Below, piece after piece: positions 19,250 through 32,000 of a stretch of DNA of 32,000 nucleotides (position 1 is the stretch's first letter; each line of letters begins with the position of its first letter). This stretch comes from Faecalibaculum rodentium (GTDB lineage: Bacteria; Bacillota_I; Bacilli_A; Erysipelotrichales; Erysipelotrichaceae): contig NZ_CP011391.1 of assembly GCF_001564455.1 (NCBI RefSeq), positions 1,380,001 through 1,412,000 on the forward strand, in the 5' to 3' direction. Below the pieces are notes generated by a model that was given only the letters and a program-made list of their open reading frames with translations, did not search any database and was not told where the DNA came from. A program made the position numbers and the translations under genes.

Positions 19250-20383
19250 ATGCGATTTGATAAGCGAGAATCGAAGAAATCGAAGTCCGGCTACACATGG
19301 CGGGTCACTTTTGAATACAAGGACCGGTACGGGAAAAAGAAGAAGTACAGCAAGTCCGGCTTCGCGACCAAGAAGGCAGCGCAGGTACATGCCCTTGCAG
19401 TCCAGTCCGATCTGGCCAAAGGGCTGGTGGTGGACAACTCCGTTCATACAGTTGATGAGCTTTTCCAGCAGATGATCAAGCTGCCGGGATACTCCCCGAA
19501 CACGATCAGCCTGTATAGGGACAATTACAATAAACACATCCTGCCTGTTCTGGGAAACGCAGATATCAAAGATCTGCACTACCCAGAACTGCAGAGCTTT
19601 TTCACAGATATGTCGACTGTGGGAAAATCTGCCGTCGCAACTACCAAAACCGTACTGACCGGGATTGGGAATCTGGCTGTCAAATCCGGATACATCGCCA
19701 GCTGGCCAATCAATCTGGTACAGACCTCCGGCGTCAACAACAGCAGAAAGAAAGCCGGCAGCAGCGACTACCTTTCGGAGACAGATTTCAAATCGCTGTT
19801 GAATCTGGTATCACACGCGAAAGACGAGTTTACTTCCGGATCTAAAGGAGTGTTCCTGATGCTTGGTTACTATTTGGGACTGCGAATCGCAGAAGCCTGT
19901 GCTCTGACATGGGATGATGTGGATTTCCAGAGCCGGACAATCCGGATAAACAAGCAGCTGACCTACACCAGGCTAAAGGTCAAAGATTTCTATATTAGGG
20001 ATATGACGAAGACAGAAAAACCGAATGCCGTTTTACCTGTCCCTGAACCATTGATAGAATCCTTGAAGGAATGGAGAGACTACAACCCCTATCCCCTGAT
20101 TCTCTGTACAGAAGAGGGACGTTGGCTGCATCCGAGAAACACCGGTAATACAATCAGGACTGCAGCGCAAAAGCTTGGGTTTGATTTCCATCCGCATATG
20201 CTCCGGCACACTTACATCACGAATCTTGTGCTGGCCGGGACTGACTTGAAAACAGTTGCTGATTTGGCACGCCATGCATCAGCAGCAATGTCTCTGCAGG
20301 TCTATACAGAGACAACTGATTTAAGGAAAGCGGAGGCTATCGCAAGGGCTTTTGAAGACGAAATCCCGAACATTCTGGCGTAG
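19250..20383 (+). CDS. int: phage tyrosine integrase
   Basis: 377 aa. N-terminal arm-binding-like region (KSGYTWRVTFEYKD.YGK). The catalytic C-domain has ...GLRIAEACAL.W.DVD..., HMLRHTYITNLVLAG and the ...LQVYTE Tyr. Confidence 0.95.
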   Translation: MRFDKRESKKSKSGYTWRVTFEYKDRYGKKKKYSKSGFATKKAAQVHALAVQSDLAKGLVVDNSVHTVDELFQQMIKLPGYSPNTISLYRDNYNKHILPVLGNADIKDLHYPELQSFFTDMSTVGKSAVATTKTVLTGIGNLAVKSGYIASWPINLVQTSGVNNSRKKAGSSDYLSETDFKSLLNLVSHAKDEFTSGSKGVFLMLGYYLGLRIAEACALTWDDVDFQSRTIRINKQLTYTRLKVKDFYIRDMTKTEKPNAVLPVPEPLIESLKEWRDYNPYPLILCTEEGRWLHPRNTGNTIRTAAQKLGFDFHPHMLRHTYITNLVLAGTDLKTVADLARHASAAMSLQVYTETTDLRKAEAIARAFEDEIPNILA

Positions 20384-20462: not shown

Positions 20463-20489
20463 GACGGAAGAATTGACGAAGTGTATAAT
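20461..20489 (+). promoter_or_regulatory. promoter of the foldase operon
   Basis: TTGACG (20461-20466), 17-nt spacer, TATAAT (20484-20489). The -35 element overlaps the terminator T-run. Confidence 0.6.
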
Positions 20490-20519
20490 TTAACAGTTGA
20501 ACACACAAGGAGGACAACT

Positions 20520-21551
20520 ATGTCTGATTGGATCAGATCGAACTGGTTCGTGGTCGTGATCATTGTGGCCCTGGCAGGTGCCACCGGCTATTTTATTTAC
20601 GACGCAAACCGGAACAACGTCCCGGGCCGTCAGGCAGACGGCAAGGACGTGATTGCTTCCCTTGCAGAACGGGACATCACTGCCGATGAACTGTATGACC
20701 AGGGAGCGCCCTTTGACGGACAGCTGCTTTACAATCTGTATAAAAATGCCGTGGTTTCCCAGTCTGTGCAGACCACATCGGACCTGGAGAAGGAAGCGAA
20801 AGAAATGGAGAAAACCATTGACCAGAATGTCCGGGGACAGAGTTCGGATAAATACAAGGAAGCCATTTCCGCGGAACTGGCCTCCTATGGCTTTGCGAGC
20901 TATGATGACCTGTACGACTACTGTCTGGTCAACGTAAAGGAAAAGGAACTGGACCGCACCTATGTGGATGCGCACTTCGAGGAACTGAAGAAATCCCTCA
21001 AGGACAAGCAGCCGCGGACGGTATCCCAGATCAAGGTCACGGTTTCCAACCCCGAGTCGCTGACAGAGGACGAGCAGAAGAAAGTCGACAGCATTGACAA
21101 GGCACTGGAATCCGGCACCTTCGCAAATGCGGCCACTGCCTTCTCGGATGATACAGCCACAGCAGACAAGGAAGGCTTCGCGGGGTACATCGATGCGGAT
21201 GATGCAGCCCAGGGCAATGGAGTGGTGGCTGCGGAAGCCGTCAGCGCCGCGCTGTCCCTGAAAAAGGGCGAGACAACAGACTGGATCTCTGTGACAGATG
21301 CGTCCACAGGCGCCAAAAGCATGGTGAAGGTCACAGTGGATGAAGACAATGTGACTGCGATTCACGAGTCTGACAATGAAGACGTCCGGGATGAACTGCT
21401 GTATGCGCTGCTCGGCAGCGATACCGGTCTGTCCATGAAGATCATGCAGGAGGCGGCATCCAAACTGAAGATCACGTTCGAGGACGAACAGACACAGGCC
21501 CGTCTGGACAACTACATGAAGACAGCAGGAGATCAGGCAGATGCGGAATAA
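20520..21551 (+). CDS. membrane-anchored PrsA/SurA-like foldase with a degenerate parvulin domain
   Basis: AAGGAGG 6 nt upstream of ATG 20520 (the track start at 20481 lies in the promoter). N-terminal TM WFVVVIIVALAGATGYFIY, a SurA-N-like helical region, then a parvulin-like ...SQIKVTV...FANAATAFSDD..TADKEGFAGYI. Confidence 0.7.
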   Translation: MSDWIRSNWFVVVIIVALAGATGYFIYDANRNNVPGRQADGKDVIASLAERDITADELYDQGAPFDGQLLYNLYKNAVVSQSVQTTSDLEKEAKEMEKTIDQNVRGQSSDKYKEAISAELASYGFASYDDLYDYCLVNVKEKELDRTYVDAHFEELKKSLKDKQPRTVSQIKVTVSNPESLTEDEQKKVDSIDKALESGTFANAATAFSDDTATADKEGFAGYIDADDAAQGNGVVAAEAVSAALSLKKGETTDWISVTDASTGAKSMVKVTVDEDNVTAIHESDNEDVRDELLYALLGSDTGLSMKIMQEAASKLKITFEDEQTQARLDNYMKTAGDQADAE

Positions 21552-22452
21552 ATCATGGATCGCTGCGGGTGCAGCCGGCCTGCTGTTCCTGGCGGGGTGT
21601 TCCGGAGCCACGGCTTCCGTGTCCGATCCGGACAAAGAGCTGATGACCATCGGCGATGTCACATACACCCGCGGGCAGGAATATGAATACATCAAGAAAT
21701 CCACAGGCCCGAACCTGGTGATGCAGATGGCTGAAGAAGTCATTTACGACAAGGAAGTCCCGGTGACGGATGAGATCCGGAAACAGGCGGAGGACAATTA
21801 CAACGAATACGCCAAAACCTCGGACAATCTGGAAAGCTATATCCAGAGCATGGGATACAAGGACCGGCAGGATTATATTGACAAGGTGCTGATCCCTGCT
21901 GTCCAGGCGGAAAAACTGCTGACAAAGTGGTTCACCGATGCTCAGGAGGAAATCGTGCAGGAGTACAAGCCCTCCCGGGTGCAGATCATCCAGACGGATT
22001 CCAAGGATTCCGCCAACAAGGCGCTGCAGGCACTGAAGGACGGAAAGAGCGCGCAGGATGTGGCTGGTCAGTACCAGACGGAGGGCACAAGCTACAACGG
22101 GACGGCGACCATCGTCACTACGATGGATACTGTGCTTCCCACCCGTCTGATCAACACGCTGTCCAGTGCCGAGAGCAAAGCCGGTGTGGTGAACGAAGTG
22201 TTCGAGAGCGACGACAAGACGCAGTTCTTCGTGGCTGTGCTTGTCAGCAACAACTATGATGACATCAAGGGCGAGCTGGAGAGCACACTTAAGAATGACT
22301 CCACAGTCACGGAGAAATGTCTGGTGAGCTACCTGACCAAGTATGATTTCCGGGTGTTTGACCAGGACATCTTCGATTACCTCCGCGTCAATTATCCGCA
22401 GTATCTGGTGACCAGGCCGGATCTGATGGAAAGCGCGGACGCGGAAAGCTGA
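21541..22452 (+). CDS. PrsA-like foldase lipoprotein
   Basis: Signal peptide with lipobox LLFLAGC. PrsA-like N-domain and a degenerate parvulin-like segment. Overlaps the upstream stop. Confidence 0.7.
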   Translation: MRNKSWIAAGAAGLLFLAGCSGATASVSDPDKELMTIGDVTYTRGQEYEYIKKSTGPNLVMQMAEEVIYDKEVPVTDEIRKQAEDNYNEYAKTSDNLESYIQSMGYKDRQDYIDKVLIPAVQAEKLLTKWFTDAQEEIVQEYKPSRVQIIQTDSKDSANKALQALKDGKSAQDVAGQYQTEGTSYNGTATIVTTMDTVLPTRLINTLSSAESKAGVVNEVFESDDKTQFFVAVLVSNNYDDIKGELESTLKNDSTVTEKCLVSYLTKYDFRVFDQDIFDYLRVNYPQYLVTRPDLMESADAES

Positions 22453-23795: not shown

Positions 23796-24074
23796 TTATT
23801 CGTGCAGGGTATCGTACTGTTCTTCCAGCACACGACGGAAGCCGAATTCCTCCTGATCCTGCATGCCCACATACCAGAGCAGATCGATATCGTCATGATT
23901 GAAGAGATACAGCCGGTCACTGCGGATCATGCCTTCCGGCCAGAGGACGCCCGCGTAGTCATACAGGATGTCATCTCCTCCCCGCTGGATCCGCCCGACG
24001 GTCATGAGCTTCTTGGACCCTTCTTTCAGGGTCACGACGCTGCCAAGCGGCAGCCATTCCGGTGTCTGTTTCAT
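23796..24074 (-). CDS. DUF4176-family protein (T7SSb-associated)
   Basis: 92 aa with RBS AAAGGAAA. WLPLGSVVTLKEGSKKLMTVGR......YDYAGVLWPEG.I.SD.LYLFNHDDI matches the DUF4176 consensus as I recall it. Confidence 0.8.
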   Translation of the reverse strand: MKQTPEWLPLGSVVTLKEGSKKLMTVGRIQRGGDDILYDYAGVLWPEGMIRSDRLYLFNHDDIDLLWYVGMQDQEEFGFRRVLEEQYDTLHE

Positions 24075-24185: not shown

Positions 24186-24992
24186 TCAATAGCGGACATT
24201 CACCTTGAATCCGGTGCCCGCAATGAAGCCAAGCTTGCTGCCAAACTCCCACTCCCGGTTCATGTGCCGATAGGAGAGGCCGGCTTCACAGCTGCCAACC
24301 GAGCCTTCTCCTGTAATGGTCACCGTACAGCCCAGAAGAGAGAACGCCAGGGAACATTCTCCCCGGAACGCCGCAGCTCCCACAGATGCTTCCAGTGTCT
24401 GTTCGTCTTTGGACAGCACTGCCTCGGCTTTCGCATAGACAGCCCCGGTCTCACCCCTGACCCGCAAAGACCCGGACATACCTGTTCCCGAAAACACCCT
24501 GTAGTTTCCCGTCACACAGGCAGCACTCATGGATGCCTCTGCCTGGATCCTGGCTTCGGGACTGAATCTCTTCTTTTTGTCCCAGAGCTTCAATCCCACA
24601 CTGCCCGAGGCCTGTGTATCAAATACCCGGACATCGGTATCGAATCTGTGATGCGCTCCACTGTGCGTGAACCGGGCTGCAGCCAGAGACGTGGAGACGG
24701 TTCCGCTGAAGGTGGTCGTGACCGGCTTCTTTTTCAGCTGCTGTCCCAGGTTCCATACCTCTGTGTGACTGACCTGCATCGTTCCGGGTTTCCAGACCGA
24801 AGTAACGGAAGCCAGAGCCGTCTCCGTCTGCTCCGCCTGCGTGGCGGCTGTCTCAAACCAGAGAGCCAGCCGGTTCAGGCTGTTCTGGACCTCCAGGTGT
24901 GTGCCATACGCTGCACTGCTTCTGTACCCCCAGGACTGAAGACCCCGAAGACTTGCCGAATACCCCTTCAGGGCATCAGTGTCGGTCCTCAT
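24186..24992 (-). CDS. candidate T7SS substrate/effector: helical N-terminus + beta-rich Gly/Ala/Ser C-domain
   Basis: 268 aa. The N-terminal ~75 aa are predicted helical. The remainder has alternating-pattern segments (ARIQAEASMSAACVTG, GAVYAKAEAVLS, ECSLAFSLLGCTVTITGEGSVGSCEAGLSY) and ends GFKVNVRY. No family recognised. Confidence 0.6.
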   Translation of the reverse strand: MRTDTDALKGYSASLRGLQSWGYRSSAAYGTHLEVQNSLNRLALWFETAATQAEQTETALASVTSVWKPGTMQVSHTEVWNLGQQLKKKPVTTTFSGTVSTSLAAARFTHSGAHHRFDTDVRVFDTQASGSVGLKLWDKKKRFSPEARIQAEASMSAACVTGNYRVFSGTGMSGSLRVRGETGAVYAKAEAVLSKDEQTLEASVGAAAFRGECSLAFSLLGCTVTITGEGSVGSCEAGLSYRHMNREWEFGSKLGFIAGTGFKVNVRY

Positions 24993-25152
24993 CCTGTTTC
25001 AGGGCAGCCAGGATCACTCTTGCCTGAGACTGCATCAGACTGAGGCGGCTGCACACCTGCTGACGCTCCTGTGCACTCAGGCAGGCAGGAATGCTGTGCT
25101 TCATGGATTGAAGACGGCCAATCAGGTTCTGATAGTAGACCTGTTCCCTCAT
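24976..25152 (-). CDS. 58-aa helical protein (possible effector-targeting/chaperone factor)
   Basis: ATGA overlap with the upstream stop (25149-25152). Sequence MREQVYYQNLIGRLQSMKHSIPACLSAQERQQVCSRLSLMQSQARVILAALKQDEDRH. Below the track cutoff. Overlaps the next start by 17 nt. Confidence 0.55.
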   Translation of the reverse strand: MREQVYYQNLIGRLQSMKHSIPACLSAQERQQVCSRLSLMQSQARVILAALKQDEDRH

Positions 25153-25433
25153 GAGGCCATGCCGGCAGCAAGGATCTGCTCGGTTTCCTGATAGGATGCG
25201 GCTGTCTGGTCCAGATAGATTGTGAAGGCTTCGGTCACTTCACAATAGTTTTCATACAGGGGAACCAGCGTCTCGTATTCGCTCGCGAATGCCCGGCTGG
25301 CCGGTGAACTCCATTCACCTTCCATAGCCCGGATCCGGCCGGTCACTGCCGCAAACAGGGCACGCATGTCATTGAGCTGGGATTTCATCGTGGCGGATCT
25401 GGCCGCCAGTTCCTGACTGGAAATCCGGATCAT
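25149..25433 (-). CDS. WXG100-like helical hairpin protein (degenerate WXG)
   Basis: 94 aa with an ATGA overlap to the upstream gene. Central MEGEWSSPAS replaces W-x-G. C-terminal ...AASYQETEQ. Confidence 0.65.
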   Translation of the reverse strand: MIRISSQELAARSATMKSQLNDMRALFAAVTGRIRAMEGEWSSPASRAFASEYETLVPLYENYCEVTEAFTIYLDQTAASYQETEQILAAGMAS

Positions 25434-25723
25434 AACAGCCTCGCAGCCTGTGCGGCTCTGTCCTGCTGCAACTGACGATAGATCTGTGCTGTGCGGATCA
25501 ATGTATCACCATACTGCGACATGATTTCAGTCAGACGGATCAGGTGCGGCTGCAGGCTCCGTGCCTGCGACAGGAAGGTCTGGCAGTCTTCGCCCTGCCA
25601 GATTTCCGCCGTCTGTTCCATGGTTGCAGCCAGCTGCCGGATACGGCTCCGGCAGTCCTGTGCCTGCTGCTGAAGGTTTTGTCCTTCCTGAAGAATGTGG
25701 TCATAGTTGGCCTGTATGTGCAT
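25430..25723 (-). CDS. esxA: WXG100 family protein (EsxA-like)
   Basis: Start at ATG 25723 (AGAAAGGAAAA 7-8 nt upstream), 97 aa. Central AEIWQGED supplies W-x-G. Helix-turn-helix layout. Confidence 0.8.
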   Translation of the reverse strand: MHIQANYDHILQEGQNLQQQAQDCRSRIRQLAATMEQTAEIWQGEDCQTFLSQARSLQPHLIRLTEIMSQYGDTLIRTAQIYRQLQQDRAAQAARLL

Positions 25724-25768
25724 AATCAGTTTTCCTTTCTCGTGAATCATTGACGCAATGCCGGCCCT

Positions 25769-25972
25769 TCAGGCCAGCAGCGCAAGAAGATGTGTCCCAA
25801 ACGGACATTCCAGCAGCCCGGACGGCAGTGAAGGATCCAGCACCTGCCTTGTCACGGGATCCATCAGCCAGAGAATCCCCAGATCTGCCGGAGCGGTTTC
25901 CGGAGAGAGCCAGAGCTGCAGCGTGTCTCCTGTCAGGACATCCGTGATGTTCAGCAGCCAGTCACTGTGCAT
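25769..25972 (-). CDS. possible YukD/EsaB-like ubiquitin-fold protein, 67 aa
   Basis: Fills the only gap in the operon, is co-directional, and its start overlaps the essC stop by 11 nt. Loose resemblance to YukD (ITDV..G.TLQLWLS... and ...LLECPFGTHLLAL). No clear SD, and the GC-rich context makes chance ORFs likely. Confidence 0.4.
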   Translation of the reverse strand: MHSDWLLNITDVLTGDTLQLWLSPETAPADLGILWLMDPVTRQVLDPSLPSGLLECPFGTHLLALLA

Positions 25973-28900
25973 GGATCAGCGGTATGAGGCCCTGGCATAC
26001 GGATTTCTTCTGCAGGATCCATGGTTCCGGCACAGAAGGCAGGCCCAGTGTCCAGGCCCTGGGTTTCCAGCCACCTGTATACAGTCTGCTGCAGGGTGCT
26101 GTATGATCTTCCGGTTCCACCAGCGGCTTTGGCCAGTCAGGACGCCACTGACAGAGCCTGGCTGCCACCACCATGGCCTCATTGCCATAGACAGCGAGCG
26201 GTTCGCCATCCCAGAACACCGGCTCTCCCTGATGCAGGCCGAGCACAGGCTGAGTGAAAACCGCAGCCCAGTCCTGCGGCTGGTCAAAATCCGGCAGGAC
26301 CATATCATCCTGCGGATCCAGCCGGTCCTGAAAATGAAGTGGCAGCCCGTCTGGTTCAAGGCGGCCTGTCGGGAATGGCACATCGTTCCGGAATCCCCCG
26401 AACAGGCTCAGACTGGCGGCACTGCCGGTCACAATGGTCTGATCCGGCGAAACAGTCAGTCTGTCAGGCCTGGTCTGGATCAGGATCAGACGCACATCGG
26501 GATGGATCCATAATGCCGGGTCTTCATCCAGCAGGACCACTGTCCGCTCCCCCTGCAGATGCAGGGCAAACCAGGCAGTACCGGCAGTTGGCAGGACCAT
26601 GCCCGGATAGACAGTCTGCAGAACGGTCAGGACCTGATCCCGGTTTTCCGGTGCCAGGATCCGGGTGAAACTGCCGAGAGGCGGATCCAGGATCCAGAGT
26701 CTGGCTGCGTACGCATCCAGCACCTGCGCGAGTCCCGGCCCATCAAACGACCCGGGCATTCCGGGGAGCAGGAGATCGCAGCATTCCCGGCCTTTGGCAG
26801 CGAGTTCCAGGGTTTCTTCCATCCAGGTCCTGACTGGCAGCTGCCGCAGGATTTGGCCATCTGCTTTTTGCAGACAGCCGCCGGCGCTGACAGGCCGTCT
26901 GGCATAGAGTGCCTGAAACCGCATCGGTCCAAACCAGCCATCTCCTGCCCCTTTCAGGTCCGCGGCCCGGCCATCATGCAGCACTTCCTGGCTTTCAAAC
27001 CGGTCTCTTACCTTGAAACACAGCACATAACCCGTATTTGCCAGGATCTGGGCATCCACGATTCCCTGCGGACGCTGAGTGGACAGAAGGAGACAGATGC
27101 CCAGAGACCGTCCGACCCTGGCCAGGGACTGAAGAAAGTCCATCTGCATAGGATACTGTTCCCGGATCTGCGCAAATTCATCTGCGACCACCAGCAGAAG
27201 CGGGATCGGGTTTTCCGGACAGAACCGGTTCAGGGTGACAAAATCCGGTGTCTGCGCCGGGTACAGAGTCTGGAAGTCATGCATGCGCTGCTCCCTGCGT
27301 TTCAGTTCCCCTTCCAGGGCCAGCTGCAGGGCGTCCATCCCGGTTTCATCCAGATCCGTCATGATGCCTGCACAATGCGGCAGTCCGGAAAAGGGAGCCG
27401 CAAAGGAACCACCCTTGAAGTCCAGGATCACAAACCGGAACCAGGCTGGGTCGTTTTCCTTCATCAGCTGCGTCAGAAGCGTGGCCATGGCTTCCGATTT
27501 CCCGCTTCCCGTGGTTCCTGCGACCAGGCCGTGGGGCCCGTCTGCCAGCAAGTCCAGGAAGACTGGCTGCTGCTGTTGATTCGTGCCGATCTGAACCCGG
27601 TAGCAGGGACCGGTCCCGACTTTGGAAAGTGGTCTTGTCTGAGGTCGGGGAGGACAGAACCGGAGGCTGTTCAGGTTTGTCAGAGTCACCGACAACCCCG
27701 TATCTTCCCGGATATCCAGTCCATAGACCGCCATGCCCGGCAGCTTTCCTGTGACCCGGCTGTGGTCATGCCACAAATGAGGATATTCTCCGGCCACCGG
27801 CTGCAGCCCGCCCCACTTTACCCGTGCCGGATCCTGGCTCCAGATGGTCATCGCAAACAGGGCTTCCGGATTTCCCGATACAGGTGCTTCCATGTCCTCG
27901 TACCGCAGAGTCCGGACAGGAATGGCTGCTTCTTCCAGAACAGCTTTCACAAAGGCAAAGAGGGGGTGACGACGGTGCTGCCAGCTGAATGATGATTCCC
28001 GGATTTCAACCGGCAGCCCGGTCTCGGTCCATCCGCAGGGAACCGGAAGTCCGCTTTGAAACAGGACGGGATCAAGGTTTGACCAGAGCTCAGCGAGCTT
28101 CTCCTGCTGTTTTGTGATTTGCTCCCGCAGCTGTCTGAACTGCATCTGCAGGCCGCATAGATACTGGCGGTAAGCCTCCAGTCTGCCGTCTGCTTCTGCC
28201 TGCTGCTGTTTCCAGGTCATGCGGCGGGAAATCAGGCCATAGACCAGGAAGCTGCCGGCCATGCTCAGCGACATCACAAGACTTGTCCTGACGGTATCTG
28301 CGGTTCCGGCTTGTGTGACCTGGAGCAGGGCTGCCGACAGCAGGGATCCGGCACACATCAGCAGGCTTGACCCGCAGGACAGAAACAGGCTCTGGGGCTT
28401 CACCGGTTCCTGCAGTGTCCAGCTCTCCAGTGTCTCCTGCAAAGGGTCCGGCATCACTGTCCAGCCGGGAAGGGATTTCCAGGACTGTGTCCTGTCCGGC
28501 TGTCGTGCAGCGTTGACAGGAATGGCGGATACCGGCGGTCCATGCTGGCGAAAGCTGCACAGAAAGAAGGACCCCACCCATAACAGGCTGCAGCGTGCAC
28601 ACTGGATGCGGTCCAGGAAATGCAGCGTTTCGCGCCGGATCCTGCGTCCGTTGACGTAGGTTCCATTCATGGAGTCCAGGTCTTCCAGCACATAGTTCCC
28701 GCCCTGCCGCGTGATGCGGAAGTGTTCGATGGATACAGCCGGATCGGGTGTTTCCATGAGCTGCCGTCCAAAGACAAATCCGTCATGTGCCAGCAGAAGG
28801 CTCAGGTCATCAGGACCAGGACGGGCTCTGGCGTAATACACCGTGTCGCCGGCAATCCGGGCATGATTCAGCGGGACTTGTATGGACCGATGGTCATCCT

Positions 28901-28979
28901 CCATGACCACAGCCCCGTTTCTTTCCGGCAGCTCCAGGCTGGAAAAGCGGTTTTCGGTAAAGCACAGCAGCTCAGCCAT
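25962..28979 (-). CDS. essC: EssC/YukB-like FtsK-SpoIIIE T7SS ATPase, short form (1005 aa)
   Basis: N-terminal FHA region (...ITRQGGNYVLEDLDSMNGTYVNGRRI), two TM segments, and one canonical P-loop domain (GTTGSGKSE; Walker B LLLVVADEF; STQRP). A ~290-aa C-terminal region has no Walker A. Confidence 0.85.
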   Translation of the reverse strand: MAELLCFTENRFSSLELPERNGAVVMEDDHRSIQVPLNHARIAGDTVYYARARPGPDDLSLLLAHDGFVFGRQLMETPDPAVSIEHFRITRQGGNYVLEDLDSMNGTYVNGRRIRRETLHFLDRIQCARCSLLWVGSFFLCSFRQHGPPVSAIPVNAARQPDRTQSWKSLPGWTVMPDPLQETLESWTLQEPVKPQSLFLSCGSSLLMCAGSLLSAALLQVTQAGTADTVRTSLVMSLSMAGSFLVYGLISRRMTWKQQQAEADGRLEAYRQYLCGLQMQFRQLREQITKQQEKLAELWSNLDPVLFQSGLPVPCGWTETGLPVEIRESSFSWQHRRHPLFAFVKAVLEEAAIPVRTLRYEDMEAPVSGNPEALFAMTIWSQDPARVKWGGLQPVAGEYPHLWHDHSRVTGKLPGMAVYGLDIREDTGLSVTLTNLNSLRFCPPRPQTRPLSKVGTGPCYRVQIGTNQQQQPVFLDLLADGPHGLVAGTTGSGKSEAMATLLTQLMKENDPAWFRFVILDFKGGSFAAPFSGLPHCAGIMTDLDETGMDALQLALEGELKRREQRMHDFQTLYPAQTPDFVTLNRFCPENPIPLLLVVADEFAQIREQYPMQMDFLQSLARVGRSLGICLLLSTQRPQGIVDAQILANTGYVLCFKVRDRFESQEVLHDGRAADLKGAGDGWFGPMRFQALYARRPVSAGGCLQKADGQILRQLPVRTWMEETLELAAKGRECCDLLLPGMPGSFDGPGLAQVLDAYAARLWILDPPLGSFTRILAPENRDQVLTVLQTVYPGMVLPTAGTAWFALHLQGERTVVLLDEDPALWIHPDVRLILIQTRPDRLTVSPDQTIVTGSAASLSLFGGFRNDVPFPTGRLEPDGLPLHFQDRLDPQDDMVLPDFDQPQDWAAVFTQPVLGLHQGEPVFWDGEPLAVYGNEAMVVAARLCQWRPDWPKPLVEPEDHTAPCSRLYTGGWKPRAWTLGLPSVPEPWILQKKSVCQGLIPLIHAQ

Positions 28980-30414
28980 GGTGTCTTCTCTTCAGCCAGA
29001 GTACAGGGGCCAGCAGTATGGGCCACAGACTGAACCAGTTCATGGACTGACTGCTGCCAATCTGGTGTTCCAGCAGAGTGCCGGTCGAAGTCAGGGCCCG
29101 GACTTCCCGCACGGTTCTTCCCCTGGGCACTTCGAGCAGGGTGTTTCCCTGTTCATCCTTCTGCACCGGAATGGGTTCTCCATCCACCTGGGCTGACAGA
29201 ATGCTCTGTTCGGGGGGCAGGCGAAGCTGCACGGTATCCGCAGTTTCCTGCACTGAAAAGCGTACCGGCGGGGTTCTGGTTTCCAGGATCCGGAGTCCTT
29301 CTTCCTGGTCCCAGTCAAAGAGAAGACCGCCGGATTTCACCAGGTGACCAGAAGACTCTGCTTTGAGGCTCTCTGCAGACTGTTCCGGTCCCTGGCGTTC
29401 CCGGTTCTTTTCCCGGGCAATGACCAGACCGGTCTGTACTGTGATGTCAACCCCGGTTTCGATCTGACTGGCCGATGCTGGCTGTGTCAGGTCTGTACCG
29501 GGTGTCCCGGGCTGAATCAGTGTCTCTCCGGCTCCAGCAGGGATGGGCTCCGGTACAGGAGTCGGGGCTGTCAGGATGGGCCGGAGTTTCTCTTCCATGG
29601 ATCCAGACGCAGAAACTGCGGGATCCTGAAGCCCGGTGCCCGTGACAGTACCGGATACGGGAGCAGATCCTTCCGGTGCCCGGGATTCTCCTGATCCGGA
29701 CTCTTCCGTCTTCGGTAATTCAGAGGGTTTTGCCGACGGAAAGAGCAGAGCCGGCGTCTGAATGCAGCCAGTCGGCTTCTCCTGCACAGACCCAGCTGGT
29801 TTCTTGTCCGGATCCTTGTCGGCAGGTTTTTCTCCCGGACATTCCGGCTGGCTGTCATCGGATGCGCCTGGCGCAGGATCAGCACAGCCCTGTCCTGCGG
29901 AGTCCACAATCTTGTCCGCAGCATCCGGATCTGTCTTATCTTCTCCGTCTTTGCTCTCTGTATCCGTCGCAGGATCGTCACTGCTGTCCGGATCCTCCGT
30001 AAGGCCGGGACTGATTTCAGGATGTGTGCCGTCTGCCGCTGTCTGATAGCCCGATTCTCCTGAACCCGGCTGGCTGTCGTGTTCCCCGACACCCTGGGTT
30101 TCCGCTGTCTCTTCGGCTGCTGCCACCGGTTCCGGCAGTTCCCGTTCCCCGCCTGAACCGATGCCTGCATCCTGATCCATATCTGTTTCGGTCTCCGGTC
30201 CTGCACCTGGATTCAGGTCTTCTTTCTGCGAAGATCCATCCGGTTTTGAATTTTCCGGGATTCTGCTGTCACTGGCCTCCATCTGTCGCAAAAGTCCTTC
30301 CGGCGTCCTGATCCAGACCCGGCGGGATGGCTGTGTCAGGATCCCGGGATCCTTCATGGTGCAGATCTCGCAGATCGTGCCGGCATCTACCGGCGGCTGT
30401 ATATGTTCAGTCAT
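28972..30414 (-). CDS. acidic, Pro/Ser/Thr-rich low-complexity protein with a folded C-domain and C-terminal TM anchor
   Basis: 480 aa with 8-nt overlaps at both ends. About 300 aa are D/E/P/S/T/G-rich. The region ~340-455 is beta-like. The terminal segment WFSLWPILLAPVLWLKRRHHG is hydrophobic. Confidence 0.75.
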   Translation of the reverse strand: MTEHIQPPVDAGTICEICTMKDPGILTQPSRRVWIRTPEGLLRQMEASDSRIPENSKPDGSSQKEDLNPGAGPETETDMDQDAGIGSGGERELPEPVAAAEETAETQGVGEHDSQPGSGESGYQTAADGTHPEISPGLTEDPDSSDDPATDTESKDGEDKTDPDAADKIVDSAGQGCADPAPGASDDSQPECPGEKPADKDPDKKPAGSVQEKPTGCIQTPALLFPSAKPSELPKTEESGSGESRAPEGSAPVSGTVTGTGLQDPAVSASGSMEEKLRPILTAPTPVPEPIPAGAGETLIQPGTPGTDLTQPASASQIETGVDITVQTGLVIAREKNRERQGPEQSAESLKAESSGHLVKSGGLLFDWDQEEGLRILETRTPPVRFSVQETADTVQLRLPPEQSILSAQVDGEPIPVQKDEQGNTLLEVPRGRTVREVRALTSTGTLLEHQIGSSQSMNWFSLWPILLAPVLWLKRRHHG

Positions 30415-31393
30415 TCACTGTCTCCTTCCATTCCATCAGCTGTGACACATCAGACCCGAACCGGTCTTTCCACTCCGCCGGCAGGGTCATGTCACAGCCT
30501 TCTGTCTTCATTCGCAGAGCGTATGCCGCAACACACAGCGCATCCTGCTCTGTCCGGACTTTCCGGCACACCTGTTCCAGCACCCCTGCCTCCAGCGGTT
30601 CGTCCAGGTCCTGCAGAACCTGCAGTCGTTCACTTAGCGGACGGCTGTCATCCAGGAGCACCTGACGGACGAGATCCGTTTCGTGCATCTGAGACCCGGG
30701 CAGCTGCAGAACCGGAACACAAAGTCCGGCCGCGAAGACAGACACTGTGATCATCCAGATCAGAACACTGCCCGGGATCTTTCCAGAATGCAGGGGATCC
30801 CTCCGTCGCCCTGGGTCCAGTTGCAGGCACCGGCGTCGCTGCAGGGGATACAGATGCCAGCGTCTGGCCAGCATCCCCCAGGCCCAGGCATCCGCTGCCG
30901 TGGTTTTCGGACAGTCACCGGCCAGTTCCGGTGCCATGCTGTCCAGTGTGGCGAAAAAGCACTGACGGCTGCCGGCCTCCAGCACGCCGTCATAATCAAT
31001 GAGCACCACCCTGTCATCGCACAGAAACAGGTGGTCTTCCTTCAGGTCGAGATAGAGGTAGCCCAGCTGATGGATCCTTTCCAGAATGCGGGCCGCTTCC
31101 TGTAGGACCCGCCGTTTCTGCGCCCTGCTCAGCCCGCCGGCGGGTGTTCCCTGGATGTATTCCTCCACCAGGACACGCTCCGTCTCCGTTTCCCGGCACT
31201 CATACAGGCACGGTGCATTCCTGCCCTTGAGCTTCAGTAGCAGATCCGCCTCCCTGGCAGACTGACGGCAGGCCAGGATATCGCTTTTTCGGGCCCGCCG
31301 CAGGATGACAAGCCTGCCGGTCTCTTCATCCCGTGCAAGTTCCGTGCAGCACAGATTGCATCCAAGGACTTTCAGACGCCTGTAGCGGTTCAC
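30407..31393 (-). CDS. EssB/YukC-like membrane protein with a kinase-like (probable pseudokinase) N-domain
   Basis: 328 aa with a GTG start in a GTGA overlap. Hanks-like landmarks are Y..LKVLGCNLCC (degenerate G-loop), LVILRR (Lys->Arg), YLYLDLKEDHLFL (HRDLKxxN -> YLDLKxxH), LIDYDG (DFG -> DYD) and MAPE. TM segment VLIWMITVSVFAAGLCVPVL, then a ~100-aa C-domain. Confidence 0.7.
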   Translation of the reverse strand: MNRYRRLKVLGCNLCCTELARDEETGRLVILRRARKSDILACRQSAREADLLLKLKGRNAPCLYECRETETERVLVEEYIQGTPAGGLSRAQKRRVLQEAARILERIHQLGYLYLDLKEDHLFLCDDRVVLIDYDGVLEAGSRQCFFATLDSMAPELAGDCPKTTAADAWAWGMLARRWHLYPLQRRRCLQLDPGRRRDPLHSGKIPGSVLIWMITVSVFAAGLCVPVLQLPGSQMHETDLVRQVLLDDSRPLSERLQVLQDLDEPLEAGVLEQVCRKVRTEQDALCVAAYALRMKTEGCDMTLPAEWKDRFGSDVSQLMEWKETVND

Positions 31394-32000
31394 TGTATGA
31401 ACTGCAGGATATGCGCCCCCAGCCGGAGTTCCATGCCATTGCGGAGCCGCATTTTTCGCCTCACCTGTTTCTCCCCGAGCCAGGTCCCGTTTGCGGATCT
31501 CAGGTCCTGGATATAGAACCGTCCCTGATCCGCTGTGATCCTGGCATGCAGCGCAGATACGCTGTCATCCAGGACCCGGATGTCGGCCTGCATCCCCCGG
31601 CCCACGGTCATGGTTTCAAACGGCAGTTCATACCGGCTGTCGCCATCCACCAGACAGGCGGCAGCTTCCGGCACCGGCGCCAGGATCTGGGTGGCCTGTG
31701 TGAATGCCGGATTTCCGCCGCTTTCTGCCCACCTGTCACCCGGGTCCGGCTTCTCAGATCCAGGGATCGGCAGTGGCGGCATCAGTGCATCGTATTCGAT
31801 CACCGGCAGGATCACCTCTTCACGTGTCCGGAAGGGTTCTCTCGGCTTCGGGGGCAGAAAGGGAAACCGGCGGGGATGGTAGGTCCGTTCCAGTTCCCGC
31901 AGTCCCTGGATCACTGTCGGCAAAGAGAACTGGTCACTGCTCTGTGCCATCTGGAGCCAGCCGGGAATTTCGTAATCCGTCGATGTCCGAAAGGCCGAGC
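31390..32000 (-). CDS. FHA-domain protein (possibly 5'-truncated by the window edge)
   Basis: C-terminal FHA is TVGRGMQADIRVLDDSVSALHARI....GRFYIQDLRSANGTWLGEKQV. The frame stays open from ATG 31950 to position 32000, so the true start may lie outside the window. Confidence 0.75.
   Translation of the reverse strand, partial: SAFRTSTDYEIPGWLQMAQSSDQFSLPTVIQGLRELERTYHPRRFPFLPPKPREPFRTREEVILPVIEYDALMPPLPIPGSEKPDPGDRWAESGGNPAFTQATQILAPVPEAAACLVDGDSRYELPFETMTVGRGMQADIRVLDDSVSALHARITADQGRFYIQDLRSANGTWLGEKQVRRKMRLRNGMELRLGAHILQFIQ

Follow-up and report, generated by a model that had tools for sequence, protein, structure and literature searches.

A compact type VII secretion cassette of Faecalibaculum rodentium combines a degenerate TsxD-type kinase with two FHA modules that keep their phosphothreonine pockets

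The closest described relatives of the system considered here are the variant type VII secretion systems (T7SSs) T7SSe, T7SSd and T7SSj, whose parts include a membrane kinase (TsxD), a PPM phosphatase (TsxF), a DUF6382 plus FHA protein (TsxJ), an Ig-like protein (TsxI) and an ATPase with phosphothreonine-competent FHA domains (TsxC) (Garrett, Higginson & Palmer 2024, PMC11217815). The FHA domains of TsdC, TseC and TsjC keep the phosphothreonine (pThr) pocket, whereas those of EssC in the T7SSb have none, and all T7SS subtypes are reported with four NTPase domains (Garrett 2024, PMC11217815). Control of the variant systems T7SSc–j by pThr and FHA domains was already proposed in the same study, so that the general idea of a kinase/phosphatase/FHA wiring of variant T7SSs, published in 2024 and given experimental support in an Actinomycetales preprint (PMC13622651), is not new. 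In the Esr threat-sensing pathway described there (2026 preprint, PMC13622651), a kinase/phosphatase pair controls Esx via threonine phosphorylation; EsrG1, which consists of an N-terminal domain, a disordered linker and, at the C terminus, an FHA domain, is phosphorylated in vivo at T152 of the linker, and EsrG2, a second protein of the EsrG1 type, is encoded beside Esx genes. Here we analyse a T7SS cassette lying in a 32,000-nucleotide (nt) stretch of the Faecalibaculum rodentium genome (contig NZ_CP011391.1, positions 1,380,001 to 1,412,000 of the forward strand), hereafter the window, for which an initial annotation had suggested an interaction network of FHA domains and pThr around an EssB-like protein. 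The cassette appears to be a compact T7SSe-like derivative in which the kinase has degenerated stepwise and the FHA pockets have been kept.

The relevant genes are all on the minus strand, neighbours overlap by 4, 8 and 8 nt, and three consecutive genes at 28972-32000 form the part of main interest. Their order agrees with the initial annotation, which had placed a kinase-like gene between those of an FHA protein and of an acidic, Ser/Thr-rich protein. The FHA gene runs off the window end and the listed 186-aa open reading frame (ORF; aa, amino acids) begins at an internal Met; the full gene, at L001:8979-10004, encodes 341 aa. The whole cassette reads FHA protein, kinase-like protein, variable anchored protein, short ATPase, small protein, two WXG100 proteins, a 58-aa protein, a protein of ~265 aa and a DUF4176 protein. 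This fits the T7SSe-type order J-(F)-D-I-C-B-A-A2, with the two WXG100 genes in the places of TseA and TseA2, and the likeness extends to a DUF6382-like plus FHA protein, a single-pass kinase-fold protein with a helical outer domain and an ATPase FHA domain carrying the pThr-binding residues. However, the window cassette is without a PPM phosphatase (TseF), its kinase has no Gly loop and neither the Lys nor the Asn of the active site, and its ATPase has ~1000 aa with a single FHA domain and a single Walker A motif, compared with ~1500 aa and four NTPase domains in the described variants. TseI has a Sec signal peptide, Ig-like domains and a C-terminal transmembrane (TM) segment, whereas its counterpart in the window has a C-terminal anchor, no signal peptide and a largely acidic disordered body.

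The kinase-like protein of 328 aa matches Pfam Pkinase with 49.5 bits against a cut-off of 31.7; its other Pfam match is APH, and the NCBIfam matches are the LanKC, LanL and Bud32 kinase domains only. An NCBI protein assigned to F. rodentium is 99% identical to it. The AlphaFold2 model, with a predicted local distance difference test (pLDDT) score of 86.8, shows a kinase fold (aa 1-195), a TM helix (aa 208-229) and a helical C-terminal domain (aa 238-325), that is, the EssB-type topology of a cytoplasmic kinase fold, a single TM helix and a helical outer domain. The label EssB given to it in the initial annotation nevertheless has to be dropped. The YukC/EssB family models (Pfam YukC, NCBIfam T7SS EssB) give no match, the motifs differ, and the best 50 Foldseek matches in the PDB, among which there is no EssB/YukC structure, show a resemblance to canonical eukaryotic-type kinases; membership of the EssB family is ruled out on these grounds.

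Motifs were assigned from alignments to RSK kinases and to Olsenella uli TsdD, with a PknB sequence serving as a guide only. The Gly-rich loop (GxGxxG) is absent, LGCNLCC standing in its place, and the VAIK Lys is replaced by Arg32 (VILR), a Lys-to-Arg change at this position being the classical kinase-dead substitution. HRD reads Y114-L-D116 in a loop of the sequence Y-L-D-L-K-E-D-H, so that the catalytic Asp116 is kept in a non-RD setting; the catalytic-loop Lys is also retained (K118), and the Asn of this loop is replaced by H121. DFG reads D133-Y-D with its Asp in place, and APE is intact (A153-P-E). The alignment confirms each of the kept and lost landmarks that had been read from the letters (DLK, the DYD Asp and APE; the VAIK Lys, the Gly loop and the His-Arg of HRD) and adds three more: the retained catalytic Asp (D116), the retained αC Glu (E48) and the change of Asn to H121. 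The view that more landmarks survive than in a fully dead pseudokinase is also upheld: D116, K118 and D133 are present, whereas in Staphylococcus aureus EssB all three catalytic motifs are degraded (LDMR / Ytfvlapd / TRG). The surplus is explained by what the protein, judging from its sequence, is, namely a degenerate Hanks kinase of the TsxD type still in the course of degenerating. A PP2C (PPM) phosphatase gene was found neither in the window nor in the 10 kb to each side. Because the Gly loop is missing, Lys and Asn are replaced by Arg and His, and there is no partner phosphatase, the 328-aa protein is unlikely to be the writer of pThr. A 493-aa NCBI version of this kinase-like protein (P0001) was excluded as a chimera, its several tandem N-lobe/C-lobe duplications being most likely an assembly artefact.

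The distribution of the cassette was established by scanning one genome per species and tabulating the matches with hidden Markov models built for the cassette proteins. A complete cassette occurs in 17 species-level genomes and a partial one in 4 more loci. The carriers are Faecalibaculum, several Holdemanella species, Absicoccus, metagenome-assembled genomes (MAGs) that bear the labels Erysipelothrix and Solobacterium, and a few MAGs whose binning is evidently wrong; the cassette is syntenic in sister Faecalibaculum contigs and in more distant ones, including a Holdemanella MAG. In the explanation that we favour, the compact T7SS is restricted to Erysipelotrichaceae. Three complete cassettes of the Erysipelotrichaceae type were met in MAG bins labelled Bacteroidota or Lachnospiraceae (L027, L033 and L034, in records titled Bacteroidaceae, Segatella copri and Waltera), which probably reflects mis-binning rather than horizontal transfer.

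Comparison of 27 distinct cassette kinases with four outgroups (L073, L038, L044 and O. uli TsdD) reveals a stepwise decay. The Gly loop is present in the four outgroups and absent in 27/27 cassette kinases, all of which also have a non-RD catalytic loop of the form Y-x-Y-x-D-L-K and DFN or DYD instead of DFG. The β3 Lys persists in 24/27 and is Arg only in the window protein and its two closest relatives, and the catalytic Asn has become His in the Faecalibaculum clade and in L014 and persists in all others. E48, D116, K118 and D133 are invariant across the cassette kinases, even at ~20% identity. The state before these losses may be represented by L073, an Erysipelotrichales bacterium that has the same gene order in a fuller T7SSe-like system. 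Its genes encode a DUF6382+FHA protein of 329 aa, a PP2C phosphatase of 240 aa, a membrane kinase of 580 aa with canonical motifs (GSGGMG / AMK / LYLDLKPDN / DFG), an Ig-like protein that carries a Sec signal peptide, an ATPase of 1313 aa, a YukD-like protein and two WXG100 proteins. Phosphatase and Gly loop are both gone in all species with the compact cassette (~17). Since the gene order of L073 matches the T7SSe layout of Garrett, Higginson and Palmer, the compact cassette is best read as a reduced derivative of a T7SSe-like system with the order J-F-D-I-C-B-A-A2. By this comparison, the reduction consists in the loss of the phosphatase, the loss of the signal peptide from the TsxI-position protein, which became mostly acidic and disordered in Faecalibaculum, and the apparent cutting of the ATPase to one working domain. 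The distant kinase matches of the genome scan (L038, L041-L072) were set aside as ordinary kinases outside a T7SS context, L043 for example being without a large ATPase gene, and the Lachnospiraceae EssC locus L018, which has neither the kinase nor the FHA protein, is uninformative. A sub-variant in an Allobaculum MAG and in Erysipelotrichaceae RD49 (L023, L025) has a TsxJ-like protein of 625-691 aa and a kinase that keeps Lys and Asn.

Both FHA modules have the residues needed to read pThr. The TsxJ-like protein is laid out as a DUF6382-like N-terminal domain, a linker and an FHA domain (Pfam FHA, E=1e-16); the DUF6382 match is weak in this family (3/7 members, best E=0.0055, under the curated cut-off) and reaches E=2.7e-4 in the L073 relative. 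The closest solved structures of its FHA domain are OdhI and GarA, and R273, S287, H290 and N309 are invariant in 7/7 orthologues and in ~25 distinct cassette sequences. The FHA region at the start of EssC, as initially annotated, is likewise recovered in the ATPase (Pfam FHA, E=2.7e-11), where the FGR, SIEH and NGT motifs are kept in 22 cassettes. The initial annotation had asked whether the FHA domains might lack the conserved Arg and Ser; Arg, Ser, His and Asn are in fact present in both modules. That two independent FHA domains have kept these residues, in lineages sharing only 20-30% identity, argues for continued reading of something phosphate-like.

Two conserved threonines come into question as phospho-sites. 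About 10 residues before the FHA core, the TsxJ-like proteins carry a (D/E)-x-T-x-[VIL]-L motif in which Thr and Leu are invariant. In the kinase, Thr25 lies in a D-x-x-T-G-[KR] motif that is invariant in 7 aligned members and is not kept in the Holdemanella-type cassettes. We infer that a phospho-site is more likely to be TsxJ T242 or kinase Thr25 than one of the TxxD motifs in the acidic protein. By analogy with GarA/OdhI and with the linker phosphothreonine of EsrG1, T242 could be both phospho-acceptor and FHA ligand.

The acidic protein itself (480 aa; D+E 17.3%, S+T 17.1%) has a conserved β-hairpin-like N-terminal motif (aa 1-45), a fast-evolving acidic disordered stretch (aa ~46-340), a conserved β domain near the membrane (aa ~360-455) and a Trp-rich hydrophobic anchor with a KRRHHG tail (aa 460-480). 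Pfam and NCBIfam searches with it gave no match. It is 36% identical to an orthologue whose neighbouring kinase is 59% identical, and in the Holdemanella orthologues Ig-like β repeats occupy the place of the acidic disordered stretch. An exhaustive search with the C-terminal domain against 1.8 billion representatives returned ~6 clusters, none with extra informative domains, plus a spurious repeat protein (P0149). The TxxD motifs named in the initial annotation are there (TETD at aa 75, TDPD at aa 161), but the meaning attached to them, a preference of FHA domains for pThr-x-x-Asp, does not survive. In shuffled sequences 2.8 TxxD are expected against 6 observed (P ~0.05), five orthologues have 0-3 against 0.8-2.4 expected (P 0.25-1.0), and the check on homologues that had been proposed shows that the positions are not conserved. 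With chance-level counts, no positional conservation and replacement by Ig-like β repeats, TxxD is ruled out as an FHA-ligand signature, and, whether it lies inside or outside the cell, the acidic protein has little to recommend it as a conserved FHA ligand.

Its gene position is that of the Ig-like TsxI of L073 and of TsdI of O. uli, and since TsxI is extracellular, the acidic protein may not be cytoplasmic. For this protein alone, an extracytoplasmic role comes close to an even chance: it would be a shrunken TsxI forming a stalk through the wall, held by its C-terminal helix while the basic tail lies inside the cell, and would take no part in cytoplasmic signalling. Apart from the TsxI/TsdI gene position, this is favoured by fast evolution, by a weak similarity of the L015 and L016 orthologues to L073 TsxI (E=0.002 and E=3e-5), by a Pro/Glu-rich composition resembling that of wall-spanning regions, and by the KRRHHG tail, which fits the positive-inside rule. 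Yet neither the window protein nor most of ~20 orthologues has a recognisable signal peptide, Holdemanella and others have an amphipathic Trp/Lys-rich C-terminal helix and not a TM segment, and there are bacterial tail-anchored proteins whose C-terminus is basic and whose body is cytoplasmic (ElaB/YqjD). For the window protein itself no significant similarity of this kind was found, and comparing it by BLAST with O. uli TsdI gave nothing significant. Orthology to O. uli TsdH was considered and ruled out, as the two proteins have their TM helices at opposite ends and share no similarity. TsdH itself (L017:4054-4578) has an N-terminal TM helix followed by three Thr-rich copies of DEAVTTLVTPARDAV, and this Thr-Thr-x-Val repeat, DEAVTTLVTPARDAV, has the look of an FHA ligand with several sites, serving the T7SSd kinase/FHA pair.

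Several other systems share parts of this arrangement. With EssB/YukC of the T7SSb the 328-aa protein has in common its topology, a gene beside the ATPase and a likely scaffold role, and in both of them Tyr replaces the HRD His and Arg the VAIK Lys. The 328-aa protein differs in standing outside the EssB sequence family and in keeping the catalytic Asp, the loop Lys and the DFG Asp, and the window system as a whole differs from T7SSb in the pThr pockets of its FHA domains and in the absence of EsaA and EssA. In the type VI PpkA/PppA/Fha1(TagH) system, too, the gene of a membrane Hanks-type kinase adjoins that of a dedicated FHA protein within a secretion locus, and the TsxJ-like FHA domain matches the TagH model TIGR03354 (E=2e-9); however, the secretion machine is another one, and the window kinase is degenerate and without a phosphatase. 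The Mycobacterium tuberculosis pseudokinase MviN is phosphorylated in trans by PknB and then bound by the FHA domain of FhaA. Together with GarA and OdhI, this case resembles the window in its membrane pseudokinase and FHA protein, in the OdhI/GarA-like FHA domain of TsxJ and in the conserved Thr upstream of the core. The pathway is unrelated, though, and the TsxJ Thr lies ~10 residues from the FHA core compared with ~30 in GarA. The Esr pathway is similar in having an Esx-linked FHA protein with a linker Thr, as the TsxJ-like protein has, but it belongs to Actinomycetota and includes MoxR, vWA, β-propeller sensors and active kinases, parts that are absent from the window system.

Taken together, these data seem to fit best a model with an EssB-like pseudokinase scaffold, pThr-reading FHA domains and a writer that acts mainly in trans, which as a whole we regard as having about an even chance of being correct. 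The 328-aa protein would descend from the membrane Ser/Thr kinase TsxD; the compact cassettes would have lost the Gly loop and the PP2C phosphatase, and the Faecalibaculum lineage would further have lost the ATP-anchoring Lys (to Arg) and the metal-binding Asn (to His). The protein is most likely a single-pass membrane dimer acting as an EssB-like pseudokinase scaffold, whose kinase-fold domain would dock the FHA tip of the short ATPase, that of the TsxJ-like protein or both. As both pockets are intact, the two FHA domains probably still read pThr. Its writer would in the main be a housekeeping Hanks kinase acting in trans or, at most, what activity the 328-aa protein has left. MviN, bound by FhaA after phosphorylation by PknB, and EsrG1 with its linker Thr would be parallels. 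The likeliest phospho-sites would be the T-x-[VIL]-L motif of the TsxJ linker or Thr25 of the kinase N-lobe, the TxxD motifs not being likely ones. Of the network initially proposed, the FHA/pThr part thus stays plausible, given the intact pockets, whereas the TxxD ligand and the 328-aa protein as writing kinase do not.

Four observations weigh against this model. The invariance of D116, K118, D133 and E48 could mean that the protein still binds nucleotide or is still catalytic. The full set of Lys, Glu, Asp, Lys, Asn and Asp persists in most cassette kinases, so that the family may be active in an atypical way. The residues conserved in the FHA domains have structural roles too. Finally, the ATPase FHA domain of L023 and L025 has lost the Arg of the GR motif (GS or GC) though the system persists, so that pThr reading by this domain is not obligatory.

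In one alternative, which we consider unlikely, the 328-aa protein is an active atypical Ser/Thr kinase that autophosphorylates and phosphorylates the acidic or the TsxJ-like protein, thereby making FHA ligands in a switch of the PpkA-Fha1 type. It draws on the retained catalytic Asp, loop Lys, DFG Asp, αC Glu and APE, on a score above the Pkinase threshold, on a fold nearest to active kinases, on the intact pockets of both FHA domains and on sister systems with canonical kinases; moreover, the co-occurring changes K->R, P->E, N->H, F->Y and N->D look like remodelling and not like random decay. Against this, no cassette member has a Gly-rich loop, the VAIK Lys is Arg, the metal-binding Asn is lost, there is no partner phosphatase though the relatives with canonical kinases carry one, and the TxxD motifs neither exceed chance nor are conserved. 

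A second alternative is a scaffold independent of phosphorylation, as in T7SSb, which we likewise judge improbable. Here the FHA domains would bind the kinase fold or phosphate-mimicking acidic segments, and their residues would be kept for structural or phosphomimetic reasons. The T7SSb provide a precedent, in that the FHA domain of EssC binds the EssB/YukC pseudokinase without a pThr pocket; PP2C and Gly loop were lost together in the compact cassettes, two variants lost the ATPase FHA Arg, and the neighbouring protein is highly acidic. But in T7SSb, where phospho-binding is unneeded, the pocket residues drifted, whereas Arg and Ser are invariant here in two independent FHA domains of lineages with only 20-30% identity. 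Returning to the model of a pseudokinase scaffold with pThr-reading FHA domains, a bolder version, which we hold with little confidence, sees in the cassette a minimal single-ATPase T7SS mid-way in the transition from kinase to pseudokinase that also gave rise to EssB, the FHA pockets reading pThr from a PASTA-type housekeeping kinase and so coupling secretion to the status of the cell envelope; alternatively, the co-varying Arg32/Glu119/His121/Asp135 site would have acquired a new, non-kinase chemistry.

The short ATPase (1005 aa) contains one FHA domain, two TM helices with a stalk, a DUF domain and one intact FtsK-type ATPase domain. Its Walker A motif, GTTGSGKS at aa 488, is present in a single copy, and PDB matches to EccC and YukB cover the first ATPase domain (D1) only. 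The AlphaFold2 model (pLDDT 78.8, predicted template modelling score (pTM) 0.49) displays, in order, the FHA domain, the 2 TM helices and stalk, the DUF domain, the ATPase domain, an α/β region and a small C-terminal domain; in the model, the α/β region (pLDDT ~60-84, no Walker A) has the appearance of a degenerate NTPase domain. Each of the 11 short ATPases examined (961-1130 aa) has exactly one Walker A motif, compared with two in O. uli TsdC. The short form with a single FHA domain and a single Walker A is shared by ~20 relatives of 961-1147 aa.

In the literature, no paper was found that substantively links T7SS with Faecalibaculum. In the accessible parts of Garrett 2024 (PMC11217815), none of six Erysipelotrichaceae genera searched for is present in the supplements, and neither 'Erysipelotrich' nor 'Faecalibaculum' occurs in the main text. 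The compact cassette appears to be an undescribed T7SS variant, since it is absent from the literature searched and Garrett 2024 gives all subtypes four NTPase domains. Faecalibaculum, Holdemanella and Absicoccus are common gut commensals, whose T7SS has so far seemingly not been described. The kinases form a graded natural series, from the canonical kinase with phosphatase in L073, through the Gly-loop-less form without phosphatase, to the form with Lys→Arg and Asn→His, and the FHA pockets are intact across both cassette steps. This makes two matters testable, the conversion of a secretion kinase into an EssB-type scaffold and the phospho-dependence of FHA docking. An EssC with one functional ATPase domain would also challenge current models, which assign substrate binding and regulation of the first ATPase domain to the second and the third. 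In our view, the kinase decay series with its conserved FHA pockets and the single-ATPase EssC merit specialist attention.

Table 1. Coordinates in the window of the cassette genes and of the domains and motifs discussed in the text.
Feature	Position	Strand	Basis or remark
TsxJ-like protein	31390..32000	-	C-terminal 203 codons in window; full product 341 aa
FHA core of TsxJ-like protein	31417..31608	-	GR R273, SxxH S287/H290, NGT N309 (full-length numbering)
TQIL motif (Thr-x-[VIL]-Leu) in TsxJ-like linker	31681..31692	-	T242 in full-length numbering; T and L invariant
TsxD-derived kinase-like membrane protein, 328 aa	30407..31393	-	Pfam Pkinase, AlphaFold2, Foldseek
Kinase-fold domain	30809..31393	-	Alignments to RSK kinases, PknB and Olsenella uli TsdD
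Acidic protein at TsxI position, 480 aa	28972..30414	-	Gene position; no Pfam/NCBIfam match
Short EssC/TsxC ATPase, 1005 aa	25962..28979	-	Pfam and NCBIfam, PDB matches, AlphaFold2
FHA domain of ATPase, aa ~60-141	28557..28802	-	FGR, SIEH, NGT; aligned to OdhI and homologues
67-aa protein at TsxB position (YukD-like, ubiquitin-like)	25769..25972	-	Kept in all cassettes; candidate identity
WXG100 protein 1	25430..25750	-	Pfam WXG100 E=2.7e-8
WXG100 protein 2	25149..25433	-	Pfam WXG100 E=2.1e-10
58-aa helical protein	24976..25152	-	In all cassettes
268-aa protein	24186..24992	-	In all complete cassettes; no Pfam/NCBIfam match
DUF4176 protein, last gene of cassette	23796..24074	-	Pfam DUF4176 E=7e-25

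Among the smaller genes of the cassette (Table 1), the 67-aa protein may be a shrunken TsxB: its L015 orthologue weakly matches a ubiquitin-like domain (E=0.047), and in L073 a YukD-like protein of 127 aa is encoded at the same position; the Holdemanella orthologues end in GDHLIL. The 268-aa protein, which like the 58-aa protein is without a family match, has a β-rich, Gly-rich C-terminal half and could be a core component or a conserved substrate, and the 58-aa protein could be a core part or its partner. Plus-strand ORFs overlapping the region have no homologue support and were discarded as by-products of the 60% G+C content.

Beyond the cassette, a prophage-like block, inserted next to it and unrelated to the wiring considered here, extends from position 1 to ~20400 of the window, with an integrase at 19250-20383 (+) followed by minus-strand genes for a PriCT/AAA_25 primase-helicase, a ResIII helicase, DUF669, AAA_24, a helix-turn-helix regulator and a dUTPase. 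In other genera the cassette is followed by two genes for parvulin-type peptidyl-prolyl isomerases (PPIases) and the suf operon, where the window has the prophage. In the window, two adjacent genes of 356 and 303 aa at 20481-22452 (+) give weak matches to parvulin-type PPIases (Rotamase); such genes stand beside the cassette in all genera, and their products may be PrsA-like foldases. On the other side, just past the window end, a divergent gene (L001:8418-8888, -) encodes a polytopic membrane protein that is ~160-180 aa long and has N-D-L-H-V-W as an invariant motif. It lies upstream of the FHA gene in 5/5 cassettes examined (L001, L007, L014-L016) and may be part of the system.

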